32,000 bases of DNA. It comes from Gemmata obscuriglobus (GTDB lineage Bacteria; Planctomycetota; Planctomycetia; Gemmatales; Gemmataceae). The notes beneath the pieces were generated by a model. That model was not told the origin of the DNA and did not search any database. It worked only from the letters and a program-made list of their open reading frames with translations. The number at the start of each line of letters is the position of its first letter. The first letter of the stretch is position 1. Both the position numbers and the translations under genes were made by a program. Positions 11,106 to 22,679 of this stretch are shown one piece after another. The stretch is taken from positions 690,001-722,000 of the forward strand of contig NZ_CP042911.1 in the NCBI RefSeq assembly GCF_008065095.1, read 5' to 3'.

Positions 11106-11645
11106 GCGTCCGGTAGTTCTGGCAGCTCGTGCGGCTCTCAACCGGCCCTTTGCCCTTCGATTCCGGTCCGCGGGCGGGGCGCCGCGATCCGGATGGAATT
11201 CGGCACAAGTTCCACCCTTTTGCGATGTTGCGGCGAGCAGTCCGGGCTGTCTCGGACCCGGCCTCTGTTCGCCCGTGCGTGTTGTCCGGGTTTTGCGGGC
11301 GGGATTCGGTGGTAGCGATCACCCAGCGAACCGGTAGCGAGTTGCCAGTCCGACGCCAGCAAATGTCCCGTCGTTGATCAGCCGAGCGCCACTTGTGTCG
11401 CACTGTAACCCCCGTTACAGACCCGCGCGAGCGGAAAACGCCAAAACCGGTCGCGAGGCCCTTCGGTCGTCCGGCCTTGCGTCGCGCGAAGGGCCGCTTC
11501 GCCCTATCCGACTGATGGCACCGGGGCGGAAAACGTGCCCCGTCGCGGCTTCAGATCGGGAGGGTCGGGGGCCACTGCCGCGGTAGCGGTCCGCCGGATC
11601 ACGCCGTATGCTAATCGGGGAAGCAACGCTCGCCGAGGTACGCGC

Positions 11646-13640
11646 ATGGGTGCCGTCGAACTGCCGCACGAAGCCCCGCGGAAGATTGAGAACACGCCCG
11701 GGCGGCTCGGGTCGTGGTCCGTCAACAGCGCCGTTTCGCGGGTCGGGACCCCGTGGACCCGCCGGCTCGCGAAGGCCGCGCTGATGATCCCCAAGATCCG
11801 GTACTACGAGAAGCTGCACGCGGACGTGTCGGACGAGAAGCTGATCGAACTCAGCATGGAGCTGCGCGGCAAGGCCCGCGGCAAGTGGGACCTCGACGCG
11901 CTGCTCCCGGAGGCGTTCGGGCTGGTCTCCGTCTCGATCCAGCGCACCCTCAACATCCGGCCGTTCGACGTGCAGCTCGCGGCCGGCACGGTGATGCACT
12001 TCGGCGGGCTGGTCGAGCTCTCCACCGGGGAAGGCAAGACGGTCAGCGCGTCGGCCCCGGCGTACCTGAACGCGCTCTCCGGCAAGGGCGTCCACGTCAC
12101 CACCGTCAACGACTACCTCGCCAAGCGCGACGCCGAGTGGATCGGGCCGGTGTACCAGAAGCTCGGCATGTCCGTCGGGGTGCTCCAGCAGAAGATGGAC
12201 GAGAGCGCCCGGGTGACGGCGTACAAGGCCGACATCACCTACGGCACCGCGGCCGAGTTCGGGTTCGACTTCCTGCGCGACCGGCTGAAGCTCCGCGGCG
12301 GGCAGGCCAACGCGGCCCCCTTCTGGGCCGCGTGGACCGGCGGCGCGGGGCGCCTGGACCCGCGGGTGCAGCGGCCCCTGCACTACGCCATCGTGGACGA
12401 GGCGGACAGCATCTTCGTGGACGAGGCCAAGACCCCGCTCATCATCGCGAACCCCACCCGGGCCGCCGAGCCCGACGAGCAGGTGGTGTTCAAGTGGGCC
12501 GACCAGCTCGCGCGCGAGATGCGGCGCGACCAGCACTTCGTGATGAACGCCAAGAAGGACAAGATCGAGCTGACCGACGCGGGCAAGCACCTCGTGCGGT
12601 ACTCGAACCCGCCCACCGGCAAGCACGCGAAGGCGATGGATAAGCTGCTCGAGGCGGTCGAGCGGGGGCTCCAGGCGCACTACCGGTTCATGCGCGACCA
12701 GCACTACATGGTGAACGGCGAGAAGAAGATCGTCATCATCGACGAGGGCACCGGGCGCCCGATGCCCGACCGGCACTGGCGCGACGGGCTGCACCAGGCG
12801 GTCGAGGCGAAGGAGCAGGTGCAGATCAACATGCCCAGCTCGCACGCCGCGCAGATCACGTTCCAGAACTTCTACCGCCTGTACACGAAGCTCGCGGGCA
12901 TGTCCGGGACGCTGCTGCCGAACTTCTGGGAGATGCGGAAGGTGTACCGGCGGTGGACCACCAAGGTGCCCACCAACAAGCCGAACCGCCGCGACAACCT
13001 GCCGGACCTCGTGTTCCCGACCGAGGAGGCCAAGTTCGACGCGGTGGTGCGCAAGACGCAGGAGATGCTGGCCGTGGGCCGCCCGGTGCTGATCGGCACC
13101 CGCACCGTGGAGGCGTCGAAGAAGATCAGCGCGAAGCTGACCGCGGTGGGCGTCGCGCACCAGGTGCTCAACGCCGAGCAGAACGAGAACGAGGCGGAGG
13201 TGGTGGCCGCGGCCGGGCAGCCGGGCCGGGTGACGGTGGCCACCAACATGGCCGGGCGCGGCACCGACATCAAGCTCGGGCCGGGGGTGGCCGAGAAGGG
13301 CGGGCTGCACGTGATCGGCACCGAGCGGCACGAGGCCGAGCGCATCGACCGGCAGCTCGTCGGCCGCGCCGGCCGCCAGGGCGACCCGGGCAGCGCGCAG
13401 TTCATGCTCTCGCTCGAAGACCAGTTGCTCGAAGGTCTGGGCGTCGCGAAGCAGCGCGAGCTGGAGCAGCTCGGGAAGGCCGGCGGGAGCCGCGACTGGA
13501 ACGCCTACGCCCCGCTGTTCCGGCAGGCGCAAAAGCGGGTCGAGGCGCGGCACTACCGCCAGCGGCTCGACCTGATGAACTACGACAAGCAGCGCCAGGA
13601 GATGCTCCAGGACCTCGGCGCGGACCCCTATGTGGACTGA
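11646..13640 (+). CDS. secA: SecA-family preprotein translocase ATPase, short paralog lacking the C-terminal third
   Basis: ATG at 11646 lies 6 nt after GAGGT. SecA motifs appear in canonical order: PFDVQL, STGEGKT (Walker A), TVNDYLAKRD, VDEADSIFVDEAKTPLII, HWRDGLHQAVEAKE, ITFQNFYRLY, TNMAGRGTDI, GRAGRQGDPG and finally RQRLDLMNYDKQRQ. The protein stops about 20 aa after that last motif, giving 664 aa. Confidence 0.9.
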   Translation: MGAVELPHEAPRKIENTPGRLGSWSVNSAVSRVGTPWTRRLAKAALMIPKIRYYEKLHADVSDEKLIELSMELRGKARGKWDLDALLPEAFGLVSVSIQRTLNIRPFDVQLAAGTVMHFGGLVELSTGEGKTVSASAPAYLNALSGKGVHVTTVNDYLAKRDAEWIGPVYQKLGMSVGVLQQKMDESARVTAYKADITYGTAAEFGFDFLRDRLKLRGGQANAAPFWAAWTGGAGRLDPRVQRPLHYAIVDEADSIFVDEAKTPLIIANPTRAAEPDEQVVFKWADQLAREMRRDQHFVMNAKKDKIELTDAGKHLVRYSNPPTGKHAKAMDKLLEAVERGLQAHYRFMRDQHYMVNGEKKIVIIDEGTGRPMPDRHWRDGLHQAVEAKEQVQINMPSSHAAQITFQNFYRLYTKLAGMSGTLLPNFWEMRKVYRRWTTKVPTNKPNRRDNLPDLVFPTEEAKFDAVVRKTQEMLAVGRPVLIGTRTVEASKKISAKLTAVGVAHQVLNAEQNENEAEVVAAAGQPGRVTVATNMAGRGTDIKLGPGVAEKGGLHVIGTERHEAERIDRQLVGRAGRQGDPGSAQFMLSLEDQLLEGLGVAKQRELEQLGKAGGSRDWNAYAPLFRQAQKRVEARHYRQRLDLMNYDKQRQEMLQDLGADPYVD

Positions 13641-20739: not shown

Positions 20740-20882
20740 CGCCGGCCGAAGTAATTGTGGGCGCCGGGGCACCAGGAGAGCCGCGCAACGCCCGTGTAAC
20801 GCGGCAATCCTTTCCGCCGCCTGCCGCGTCTTGGGGACGGTAGTATGAGGTTCGCCCGCCCCCACGCGCGGAGGTAGTTCCC

Positions 20883-21830
20883 ATGCGTCGGTCTCTGCTT
20901 GCGCTCGCTGCGGTCGCGCTCGTCGCGGCCCCCGGCGGCGCCGCCGAAACCTGCGGCCACGGCACGAGGCTCGATTTCGTCGACAGCCCCAAGGAAGCGG
21001 CCGCCGTCGCCAAGAAAGAACAGAAGCTCGTCCTTGTGCTGCACGTGTCCGGCCACTTCGAAGACCCGGGCCTGACCTGAAACAACGCCGAAGCGCTCCG
21101 TGCGGGCGCCCTGAACAACGCGGCGGTCGGTGCGTTCGTGAACGAGTACTTCGTGTCGTCGTACCAGAAGGTCGCGACCTTCAAAATCGTGGGCGGGCAG
21201 AAGCAGGGCGGGAACGTGGCCGCGTACTTCTGCGCCCCGGACGGCCGTGTGCTGCACTGCGTCGCCGGCCCGGTGGACGCCCAAACCTTCCTCCGCGAAG
21301 CGAAATGGGTCGTGGAGACCACCAAGACTTGCATGCGGGACGCGAAGAACGACGGGGCCACGTTCAAGGAGCTGTTCCGCAAGGCGCATGCGGAGAAGTT
21401 GCGCCGGGAGTTCGGCATCGTGGTCGAAGCGGTCGCCTACGACCCGCCGGACCCGATGGACGAGAAGGACGCGCTGACCTACCGCGACCCGACCGGGCGC
21501 CCGCTCGCGCCGAAGCTCCCGCCGCCGCCGATCGACGGCCCCGATGTCACCCTCGGTGCCAAGAAGTTCGAGCAGATGCAGAAGGACGCGGCGGGCGCGC
21601 CGGGCAACCGCGTGGTCGCGTGCGGTAAGGGGGGCCGCGTGGTGGTCACGAACCAGGGCCTCGTTCACCAGATCATGGCCGCGCACGCAATGATCCCCAT
21701 CGAGCGCGTGTACGGAACGGTGTTCGAGAACATCCTGGGCGAAAAGATCTCCACGAAACCGGTGGACGTGGTCCGGCCGTTCACGTGGGTCGATAAGGAC
21801 GGGAACCGCTTGCGCCCGGGTGCCCCGTAA
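20883..21830 (+). CDS. secreted thioredoxin-fold protein interrupted by one in-frame TGA (21078-21080): candidate selenoprotein, or alternatively a pseudogene
   Basis: Track ORFs 20883..21080 and 21138..21830 share a frame, and TGA is the only stop between them. The first piece holds only the signal peptide plus ...KEAAAVAKKEQKLVLVLHVSGHFEDPGLT. Reading continues NNAEALRAGALNNAAVGAFVNEYFVSSYQKV...AAYFCAPDGRVLHCVAG. The second piece has no SD or ATG of its own. GGAGG precedes the ATG at 20883. Confidence 0.6.
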
Positions 21831-21845
21831 CGCGTTATCGCCACT

Positions 21846-21895
21846 CCGAACGACGCGCCCCCGCGGTCAACGTGCCGCGGGGGCGCGTCGTTCGG
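21846..21895 (+). terminator. strong hairpin (perfect 21-bp stem, 8-nt loop) after 20883..21830
   Basis: CCGAACGACGCGCCCCCGCGG (21846-21866) is the exact reverse complement of 21875-21895. It is followed by CCTTTGCC, a weak U-tract. Confidence 0.6.
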
Positions 21896-22010
21896 CCTTT
21901 GCCGGTTGCACGTGTCGGGAAATTACGGTTACGTTCACCGGACCTGCGAACGGGTACAAGTTCCGCATCTCCCCGAGATTATGTTGGGAACGCCACCCGG
22001 AGCCCGAGCC

Positions 22011-22679
22011 ATGTTCGCTTGCTTCGCCGCCCTCTCCTTGATCGGAACCGTGCCGGCCGCCGAGTGCGCGCCGGGCTCACGGTACTATTTCGTTCTGTTC
22101 GGGGGGCAGTCGGTTCCGTTCAAACCGCGCACCGCGCACACCTGGGCGACGTTCGTGAAAACCACGCCGACCGCTGACGGCCGGACGGCGGTGGAGCAGG
22201 TCACAATCAGTTGGCTGCCCGCCTCCGGCCCGGTGCAACCGCTGCGCATACGCCCCGTTGAGGGGAGGAACTACACGCTCGACGAGACGTTCGCGAAGAT
22301 GGCGGCCAACAACGCCCAGGTGTCGGTGTGGGGGCCGTTCGAGACCGACGCGCAGCGGTACGAACTCGCCGCGCGCCAGGCGAACACGCTCAACAGCGGC
22401 GCCGTGACGTTCCGGAGCGTCGATTCCTTCCGCGGCAACCGGGCGGTGCAGAACTGCGTCCACGCGGTCACTTATGCGGACCCGAAACTGCAATCGCTCC
22501 GCCAGCCGGTGATCCGCGTCGGCGAACCCGGTACGAGTCGCCTCGCGGCGAAGTACGTGGACGGCGGCGCCGTCGCCGGGCCGCAAACGCACCCCGAGGT
22601 GCTGGCCTTGATCGGCGCGGACCGCTACCCGACGATTTCGCGTGCCGCAGGCGAGCGCCTCCGGCGCCAGTGGCGCTGA
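22011..22679 (+). CDS. hypothetical secreted protein
   Basis: ATG at 22011 lies about 10 nt after GGAG, with an alternative ATG at 21981. Signal-like N-terminus MFACFAALSLIGTVPAAEC. Normal composition with G/C third positions. No family recognised. Confidence 0.7.
   Translation: MFACFAALSLIGTVPAAECAPGSRYYFVLFGGQSVPFKPRTAHTWATFVKTTPTADGRTAVEQVTISWLPASGPVQPLRIRPVEGRNYTLDETFAKMAANNAQVSVWGPFETDAQRYELAARQANTLNSGAVTFRSVDSFRGNRAVQNCVHAVTYADPKLQSLRQPVIRVGEPGTSRLAAKYVDGGAVAGPQTHPEVLALIGADRYPTISRAAGERLRRQWR

Follow-up and report, generated by a model that had tools for sequence, protein, structure and literature searches.

A conserved in-frame TGA and an adjoining SECIS-type hairpin in the gene for a predicted secreted thioredoxin-fold protein of Gemmata obscuriglobus and its relatives

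The locus and the conservation of its internal TGA

The 32,000-nucleotide stretch of the Gemmata obscuriglobus genome analyzed here (hereafter the window) carries on its forward strand, at positions 20883-21830, a region that holds two separate open reading frames (ORFs), 20883..21080 and 21138..21830, and that we interpret as a single gene in which an internal UGA is read as selenocysteine (Sec). Translation yields one frame of 316 codons with a terminal TAA and a lone internal stop, the TGA at 21078-21080, which is codon 66; a sequence-only reading of the window had proposed that this single in-frame TGA joins the two same-frame ORFs across a gap of 19 codons, and the translation confirms it. 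The same reading had assigned a signal peptide to the upstream piece and found no Shine-Dalgarno (SD) sequence for the downstream one. Both points hold: the hydrophobic N-terminus is shared by nearly all orthologues, and inspection of the sequence reveals no SD-like signal, and nothing like GGAGG, before the GTG at 21138, unlike the ATG at 20883. The features of the locus are as follows (SECIS, selenocysteine insertion sequence; CDS, coding sequence):

20870..20874, forward strand: SD-like GGAGG, 8 nt before the ATG at 20883, read from the sequence
20883..21830, forward strand: proposed complete selenoprotein CDS of 315 residues, with Sec as residue 66 and the true stop TAA at 21828-21830
20883..20945, forward strand: signal-peptide-like N-terminus MRRSLLALAAVALVAAPGGAA, a hydrophobic segment in nearly all orthologues
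20952..20954, forward strand: Cys24 codon TGC, in the motif C-G-x-x-G-T, a candidate resolving partner for Sec
20961..21413, forward strand: predicted thioredoxin-like domain, residues ~27-177, from AlphaFold2 models of the homologue P0116 and Foldseek
21078..21080, forward strand: proposed Sec codon TGA, residue 66, in the motif T-U-N-N-A, at the start of predicted helix alpha1 and present in 137/137 loci
21093..21109, forward strand: SECIS-type hairpin in the stretch that codes for helix alpha1, with stem 21093-21098 / 21104-21109 and apical loop CGUGC (21099-21103)
21414..21827, forward strand: conserved C-terminal region LTYRDPTGRPLAPKLPPPPIDGPDV ... VHQxMAAH ... VYGTVFENILGEKISTKPV, strongly conserved in the orthologue alignment
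21846..21895, forward strand: perfect 22-bp GC-rich hairpin, terminator-like, with an RNA fold of -55 kcal/mol and no clear T run

We compared 137 loci, namely the window, 56 genome loci (one genome per species) and 80 metagenome contigs, which are the best 80 of at least 533 stretches, and found TGA at the same column in every one of these orthologous DNA loci, a recurrence that chance could not remotely account for. The genome loci span Gemmata, Frigoriglobus, Fimbriiglobus, other Gemmataceae and some metagenome-assembled genomes (MAGs) labelled Pirellulales; all 56 have the TGA, at protein identities from 98% down to 44%, with coding sequence conserved on both sides and no frame changes, and so do the metagenome loci (80/80). 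The flanks are conserved as KLVFVLHVSGxFEDPxFT-TGA-NNAEALRVNALA, and no locus has an indel across the TGA, so that the frame is kept throughout. A search with the joined protein retrieved 2277 homologues, and 119 of the best 120 are proteins of 216-269 aa that comprise the post-TGA part only; the exception is P0116, a full-length protein whose sequence ...HVSGHFEDPRFT-C-NNAEALR... has a Cys precisely where the TGA falls. The pre-TGA piece retrieved 307 proteins, the best 120 of which are all 58-69 aa long and end at the TGA. The expectation that orthologues should carry either TGA or Cys at this column, without extra disruptions, is thus borne out by the 137 TGA loci, by the TGT of P0116 (locus L057) and by the Cys of the distant relatives P0398, P0405, P0442 and P0491.

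A lone in-frame stop would by default be taken for a recent nonsense mutation in a pseudogene or for a sequencing or assembly error, which was also the alternative named by the sequence-only reading. Conservation in more than 100 independent assemblies excludes it: the same TGA recurs in 137 independent loci drawn from isolates, MAGs and metagenomes, it is present in two G. obscuriglobus assemblies and in raw-read assemblies, and purifying selection is strong on both of its sides, which together leave this explanation next to no probability. TGA is at the same time the usual stop of the window, where it ends 8 of the 10 genes checked, and recoding would therefore be site-specific. We also considered whether a selenoprotein gene might avoid TGA as its true stop, and rejected the idea, as TGA (54) is commoner in that position than TAA (43) or TAG (29). 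In two long-read MAGs (L049 and L051) and in P0393 the gene is broken past the Sec codon by apparent frameshifts, with frames of 112 and 84 codons and garbled stretches in P0393; these breaks are most likely assembly indels rather than real pseudogenes. Four MAGs labelled 'uncultured Alcaligenaceae' (L021, L022, L029 and L040) contain the planctomycete-type gene at 60-63% identity, and here mislabelling or binning contamination, not a true presence in Proteobacteria, is the likely cause.

The annotation shows two hypothetical proteins in every genome examined, in the model planctomycete G. obscuriglobus GobsT_06290 and a shortened neighbour; GobsT_06290 matches the pre-TGA ORF at 100% identity across the 44-residue query, and assembly GCA_000171775.1 has the identical gene order PQQ_2, Lactamase_B_3, 65-aa ORF, 225-aa ORF. 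Taken at face value, this annotation means that the TGA is a true stop and that the locus makes two products, a secreted peptide of 65 aa and a protein of ~230-250 aa started downstream, and the unanimity of the gene callers speaks for it, as does a GTG (a Val codon 8 codons past the TGA) that is usable as a start in most species. Six observations contradict it: 1) the segment NNAEALRVNAL, which lies between the TGA and any candidate start, is conserved as protein in all loci, as had been suspected when the 19 codons between the TGA and the GTG at 21138 were noted to look coding. 2) The window itself has GCG in place of the usable GTG, and its next start lies 19 codons downstream without an SD sequence. 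3) The frame runs unbroken and free of indels over the TGA in the 137 loci. 4) The predicted thioredoxin fold spans the TGA, with strand beta1 before it and helix alpha1 after it. 5) Single-chain, full-length Cys homologues exist. 6) The downstream piece would be left without a signal peptide. We therefore hold two separate products to be highly improbable. In most species the GTG acts as a false start for the gene callers (their proteins begin M/V-GALNN...); in G. obscuriglobus a GCG (Ala) at 21102-21104 replaces the GTG of the orthologues (alignment columns 25-27), which is why the caller's start shifts there to the GTG at 21138.

The downstream hairpin and selenocysteine decoding

The hairpin GCGCTC-CGTGC-GGGCGC measures 17 nt, with a 6-bp stem and a 5-nt loop of the form CGUGY (CGUGU in most orthologues); it follows the TGA after a spacer of 12 nt, so that the apical loop begins 18 nt past the UGA. 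The GU of the loop is almost invariant, the G being invariant and the U found in 90% or more of the sequences. When the 60 nt that begin with the TGA are aligned, which requires no gaps, codons +5 to +9 (GCG CTC CGT GTG AAC) show a synonymous codon entropy of 0-0.22 bit, as against 1.2-1.9 bit at the gene's remaining Ala, Leu, Arg and Val columns. Standard pairs occupy 91.1% of the cells of the stem across the 137 sequences (120 distinct), versus 24-57% in controls with the 3' arm displaced by 1-3 columns, and compensatory double changes occur at three of the six stem pairs (G-C to A-U, C-G to U-A and C-G to G-C), which none of 500 column shuffles matched. The hairpin is part of the minimum-free-energy fold in all sequences tested. 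An RNA-level constraint with covariation acts on this element, and its earlier designation as a possible SECIS has gained weight, given that no TGA carrier lacks it, that its synonymous sites are frozen and that its stem shows compensatory changes. RNAalifold, run on a 57-sequence alignment, preferred two trivial 3-bp helices over the hairpin, because a C.A mismatch in many sequences makes it bypass the real stem. A lower-stem extension (columns 10-13 with 35-38) has moderate support and is not formed by the window's own sequence. The GTG-to-GCG substitution of G. obscuriglobus also alters the loop, from CGUGU to CGUGC.

Search criteria of the bSECISearch type ask for a small apical loop that contains G and lies ~16-37 nt from the UGA, and the present element, a stem-loop right after the UGA with a G-containing loop at 18 nt, agrees with them. 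The minimal SECIS of Escherichia coli fdhF is a 17-nt upper stem-loop ~11 nt past the UGA. The Gemmata hairpin (17 nt, 12-nt spacer) resembles it in lying within the CDS, right 3' of the UGA, and in having a small apical loop with G-U; it differs in that its sequence is unrelated, no bulged U is evident, a C.A mismatch recurs and SelB binding is only putative.

A full set of Sec-insertion genes has been published for G. obscuriglobus (PMC4807772), in which Table S8 lists IMG ids for selA, selB, selC and selD of strain UQM 2246, and the strain has been listed among Sec users, with three selenoprotein genes that belong to known families (PMC5029168). The Sec-decoding genes that the sequence-only reading had asked for in this genome are thus available from the literature; the 32-kb window has no tRNA gene and no sel gene.

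Downstream RNA structures stimulate stop-codon read-through in some systems, and the UGA might accordingly be read through or recoded to a standard amino acid (e.g. Trp, Cys or Arg) by a near-cognate tRNA, with the hairpin as a stimulator and no Sec involved. That Sec insertion is deduced from sequence leaves some room for this explanation. Opposed to it are the 12-nt spacer, the loop at 18 nt and the GU in the loop, all of which match the bacterial SECIS pattern, the selA, selB, selC and selD genes reported for the organism (PMC4807772), the Cys at the homologous column in relatives, and the location of the residue at the nucleophile position of a thioredoxin fold. Moreover, the TGA is held in all 137 loci with a sense codon only one mutation away, which suggests that it supplies what no sense codon can. 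On this evidence we consider read-through to a standard amino acid very unlikely, and are highly confident that the locus is a genuine selenoprotein gene in which UGA codon 66 encodes Sec, a reading that is, as a whole, strongly supported. Under it, UGA codon 66 would be read as Sec in one secreted G. obscuriglobus protein of ~315 residues; the hairpin 12 nt past the UGA, inside the CDS, would be a bacterial SECIS, and would bring SelB and Sec-tRNA(Sec) to the ribosome with the UGA in its A site.

Predicted fold, cysteine forms and active site

By sequence alone the protein has few recognizable affinities: the joined protein has no Pfam match at E<=1 and no NCBIfam match, a profile search of Protein Data Bank (PDB) sequences returned noise only, and the C-terminal region 21414..21827 is without a Pfam, NCBIfam or PDB match. 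We therefore turned to structure prediction, with two AlphaFold2 runs from different alignments on the Cys homologue P0116, whose residue numbers are offset by 29 from those of the window protein. Both models comprise alpha(65-75), beta(78-85), an active-site loop, a kinked alpha(96-118), beta(119-126), beta(141-146), beta(151-157) and two long helices. The domain of the window protein is accordingly predicted to run alpha0, beta1 (LVLVLHVS), Sec loop, alpha1, beta2, a beta3-beta4 hairpin (NVAAYFC-APDG-RVLH) and two long helices, and in the better model residue 95, at the Sec column, stands directly before helix 96-103 (predicted local distance difference test score, pLDDT, ~79). The C-terminal region is modelled with low to moderate confidence. 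Foldseek searches of the PDB with both models gave as top matches 3ira, 7tkv (Thioredox_DsbH), 2kuc, 3f9u, AGR2/AGR3, DsbH and the C-terminal domain of DsbD, with a probability of 1.00 and TM-scores of up to 0.68 normalised on the target. In agreement with the structural result, hhalign of the family profile with human AGR2 (sequence checked against PDB 9i3u_B) places T-U-NNAEALR on E-C-PHSQALK, with Sec on the Cys of CPHS. The models thus support a thioredoxin fold, divergent but of the Thioredoxin_7/DsbH/AGR type, that places Sec at the start of alpha1. The sequence-only reading had claimed a Thioredoxin_7/DUF255-like domain with the TGA at the CxxC-type nucleophile site: the fold is upheld by the two models, Foldseek and hhalign, as is the position at the start of alpha1, whereas neither a Pfam match nor a cis-Pro loop goes with it and the motif is U-x-x-A instead of CxxC or UxxC. 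The gathering thresholds of PF13899 and PF03190 are reached neither by the window protein nor by 52 members scanned, and by sequence it is not a member of these families, with which it has the fold alone in common.

With P0116 as the query, a full HMMER scan recovered 957 relatives at E<=1e-3 among 1.84 billion representative proteins. About 18 of the distant relatives are full length (28-48% identity), many of them with an N-terminal transmembrane segment and a Pro-rich linker, and at the Sec column these 18 have Cys (4), Ser (5), Ala (4), Glu (2), Asp (1), Gly (1) or a deletion (1). The four with Cys are P0398, P0405, P0442 (TGC) and P0491. Among close homologues P0116/L057, with TGT, is the only Cys form found versus hundreds of Sec forms; this form (L057:344-391) sits on a single metagenome contig of 1172 nt and retains an intact, perfect SECIS hairpin despite the TGT, so that Sec was replaced by Cys very recently or the TGT is an error of the reads or the assembly. 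Cys-bearing homologues aligned to the UGA are thus on record, though rare, and the distant Cys form P0442 is without the hairpin motif. For P0442 (L062:3555-3602) folding predicts a perfect 6-bp hairpin of another sequence, GCCGAA-CAGA-UUCGGC, 9 nt past the Cys codon TGC; it comes from one sequence and may be due to chance.

Other cysteines of the family follow distinct patterns. A Cys 40-50 residues upstream of Sec, in the motif C-G-x-x-G-T (Cys24 here), is present in 57 of 57 Sec forms and missing from its place in 17 of the 18 distant relatives, including all four Cys forms; the exception is P0362, with a CxxC at this place. Every member of the whole family retains the Cys of the Y-F-C motif, which thioredoxin-fold topology would put at the end of beta3 distal to the active site, probably in a structural role. 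A sub-clade (the L034:2998 region, the L035:827 region and P0362) has an extra CxxC just past the signal peptide (NCKKCGKESFGT / NCGKCGNKSYGT) and a second at the extreme C-terminus (ICLPCE / VCLKCD / ICLGCE), and these two motifs could make a four-Cys, zinc-ribbon-like clamp linking the termini. In P0362 the whole Sec segment is lost.

A number of observations weigh against the interpretation of the locus as the gene of a Sec-dependent thioredoxin-fold enzyme. At the RNA level, roughly half of the sequences have C.A at one stem pair of the hairpin, its folding energy is unremarkable for GC-rich RNA (z-scores of 0 to -2.5 versus shuffles), and an Rfam scan of 20800-21400 at E<=10 recovered no SECIS family, only a spurious IRES_L-myc on the opposite strand. 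For the Sec machinery of the gene carriers (this genome and 56 others) our basis is the literature, and SelB binding and actual selenium insertion at UGA66 stay putative. At the protein level, scanning 52 members singly gave three stray sub-threshold Pfam hits (Thioredoxin_7 and Thioredox_DsbH, E 0.014-0.24); the AlphaFold2 models are of moderate confidence (mean pLDDT 64 and 70.5, with most of the core above 90), the Foldseek E-values are modest (2.6e-4 to 1e-2) and the hhalign probability with AGR2 is just 9%. The motif U-N-N-A has Ala, not Cys or Ser, at its fourth position and the second Cys is absent; a cis-Pro loop is absent as well, and an invariant K-Q-G-G-N, placed by predicted secondary structure, precedes beta3 in the Sec subfamily. 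Cys24 is a candidate resolving residue by virtue of its co-occurrence with Sec. Finally, the wider family appears not to be uniformly redox-active, as Ser, Ala, Glu, Asp or Gly often stands at the Sec column.

In the mechanism we propose, the product would have a signal peptide followed by the divergent thioredoxin-fold domain, and Sec would occupy the place of the attacking Cys of CxxC/CxxS oxidoreductases, in a T-U-N-N-A motif without an internal resolving Cys. It would attack a disulfide or an oxidised substrate to give a selenenylsulfide or selenenic intermediate, which Cys24 or an external thiol may then resolve. We give roughly even chances to such a role as a periplasmic or secreted single-nucleophile selenol oxidoreductase. 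As to export, the twin-Arg of the window's signal peptide (RR) is not conserved among orthologues, and export by the twin-arginine (Tat) route was accordingly rejected; because of this lack of conservation, export via the general secretory (Sec) translocon appears the probable route.

The main functional rival to an oxidoreductase accepts Sec insertion and posits a chemistry other than thiol-disulfide exchange, either that of a peroxidase-like enzyme (Sec with the invariant Gln76, Asn92 and Trp123) or that of a metal or metalloid binder or carrier (a selenolate with the invariant His54). Glutathione peroxidases use a Sec/Gln/Trp/Asn tetrad, which a putative Sec/Gln76/Asn92/Trp123 arrangement may resemble. 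The U-x-x-A motif without a resolving Cys suits such a chemistry, as do the G-G-N in place of the cis-Pro loop and the invariance, in the Sec subfamily, of the Gln past beta2, the Asn opening beta3 and the Trp in alpha3; the toleration of Ser, Ala and Glu at the Sec site in the wider family would suit a binding scaffold. On the other side, the best Foldseek matches are DsbH, Thioredoxin_7, AGR and DsbD-C, peroxiredoxins score far lower (E>0.09) and no glutathione peroxidase is among the 50 matches listed; the distant Cys forms do not all retain the candidate tetrad residues, and the N-terminal Cys that accompanies Sec in 57/57 forms fits a resolving-Cys mechanism. Peroxidase-like or metal-binding activity is hence possible but on the unlikely side.

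What is most unusual about the family is that Cys orthologues are almost lacking and that distant relatives vary in the residue at the Sec column. This invites the more speculative, and on present evidence doubtful, proposal of an essentially obligate selenoprotein family, with Sec fixed over a whole order of mostly aerobic planctomycetes and virtually no Cys orthologues. Sec would then have been acquired by a scaffold without uniform redox activity, and would serve a selenium-specific envelope chemistry beyond the reach of Cys. If this were true, Sec would not be an interchangeable 'better Cys' here.

Relation to known systems and genomic context

The best structural matches of both models, the Thioredoxin_7 and Thioredox_DsbH (DUF255) proteins (2kuc, 3ira, 7tkv, DsbH 2ju5, 3f9u and DsbD-C 1vrs/6dnu), have in common with the Gemmata protein the order alpha0-beta1-[active-site loop]-alpha1-beta2-beta3/beta4 hairpin-alpha, a secreted or periplasmic location and a '...dpdG...' hairpin (APDG in Gemmata). 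The Gemmata protein differs from them in having U-N-N-A and not CxxC, G-G-N and not cis-Pro, an insertion of 6-7 residues between beta1 and the nucleophile, no Pfam match, and a conserved C-terminal region of ~140 residues without a known counterpart. AGR2, AGR3 and ERp18 (TXNDC12), which are PDI-like proteins with a single-Cys CxxS motif and which Foldseek matched in both runs, resemble it in their single-nucleophile motif, which has no second Cys and on whose catalytic Cys (CPHS) Sec aligns, in being secreted and in having no helix alpha2 between beta2 and beta3. Unlike it, they are eukaryotic proteins of the endoplasmic reticulum with Cys and not Sec, and the AGR proteins keep the cis-Pro (V-P-R); the hhalign score does not support common ancestry with AGR beyond the shared fold.

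The known thioredoxin-fold selenoproteins of bacteria (Trx, Grx, DsbA-like, thiol:disulfide interchange protein, Trx7/PDZ NF041199, SaoT and the HUIPC-motif family; PMC13188914 Table 1) are of the same kind, with Sec at the redox-motif position and a UGA accompanied by an in-ORF SECIS. They differ from the Gemmata protein in their motifs, which are UxxC, CxxU, UxxT or UxxS, and in being covered by Pfam or NCBIfam models; most of them have many close Cys orthologues, whereas here one close Cys form stands against hundreds of Sec forms. The same 2026 review tabulates 119 prokaryotic selenoprotein families with domain identifiers (PMC13188914 Table 1), none of which has a T-U-N-N motif. No selenoprotein model of Pfam, TIGRFAM or NCBIfam (release 20) matches 33 members of the Sec subfamily and 19 of the wider family, in a scan that covered the catalogued families with such models, a few others having just cd or PTHR ids. 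Neither Planctomycetes nor Gemmata is mentioned in the papers on deep-Sep and BSepDB; a supplement or a paper elsewhere may hold the family. As a selenoprotein family it is thus new, and of a well-known kind, that of thioredoxin-fold selenoproteins with an in-ORF bacterial SECIS. SECIS-independent pipelines apply a homology filter that passes a candidate only if its top hits include Cys homologues or a Sec homologue that is already known (PMC12013277), and the Gemmata family fails this filter because its close homologues are Sec forms annotated as shortened proteins, which plausibly explains its absence from the catalogues.

Correcting the two-gene annotation would add a family to a prokaryotic selenoproteome of ~119 listed families, and it exposes a blind spot of discovery methods, which miss Sec families whose close homologues stand shortened in the databases. 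The predicted product, a secreted thioredoxin-fold selenoprotein with an unusual U-x-x-A motif, is widespread in soil and freshwater Gemmatales, to judge from the metagenome stretches noted above (at least 533), and offers a concrete target for the role of selenium in the envelope of aerobic planctomycetes. Its near-invariant hairpin would likewise be a clean SECIS example for a phylum under-represented in SECIS models.

The neighbours of the gene are conserved among close relatives only (an enoyl-CoA hydratase in 8-9 loci and a 257-aa ORF in 5), and no operon partner and no Sec-machinery gene was found nearby; all-against-all clustering of the ORFs of the loci was dominated by spurious GC-rich antisense ORFs. 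The inverted repeat at 21846-21895 starts 16 nt past the TAA and was not called by a consensus terminator scan. The gene looks monocistronic. The 257-aa ORF (21906-22679, forward strand) lies directly downstream, has no Pfam match, and is next to the selenoprotein gene in L001, L003, L008, L011 and L016. Elsewhere in the window, a SecA-like ORF of 701 aa (11535-13640, forward strand) is shorter than a typical SecA and contains SecA_DEAD, PP_bind and P-loop domains; its C-terminal part may lie in another frame or ORF.

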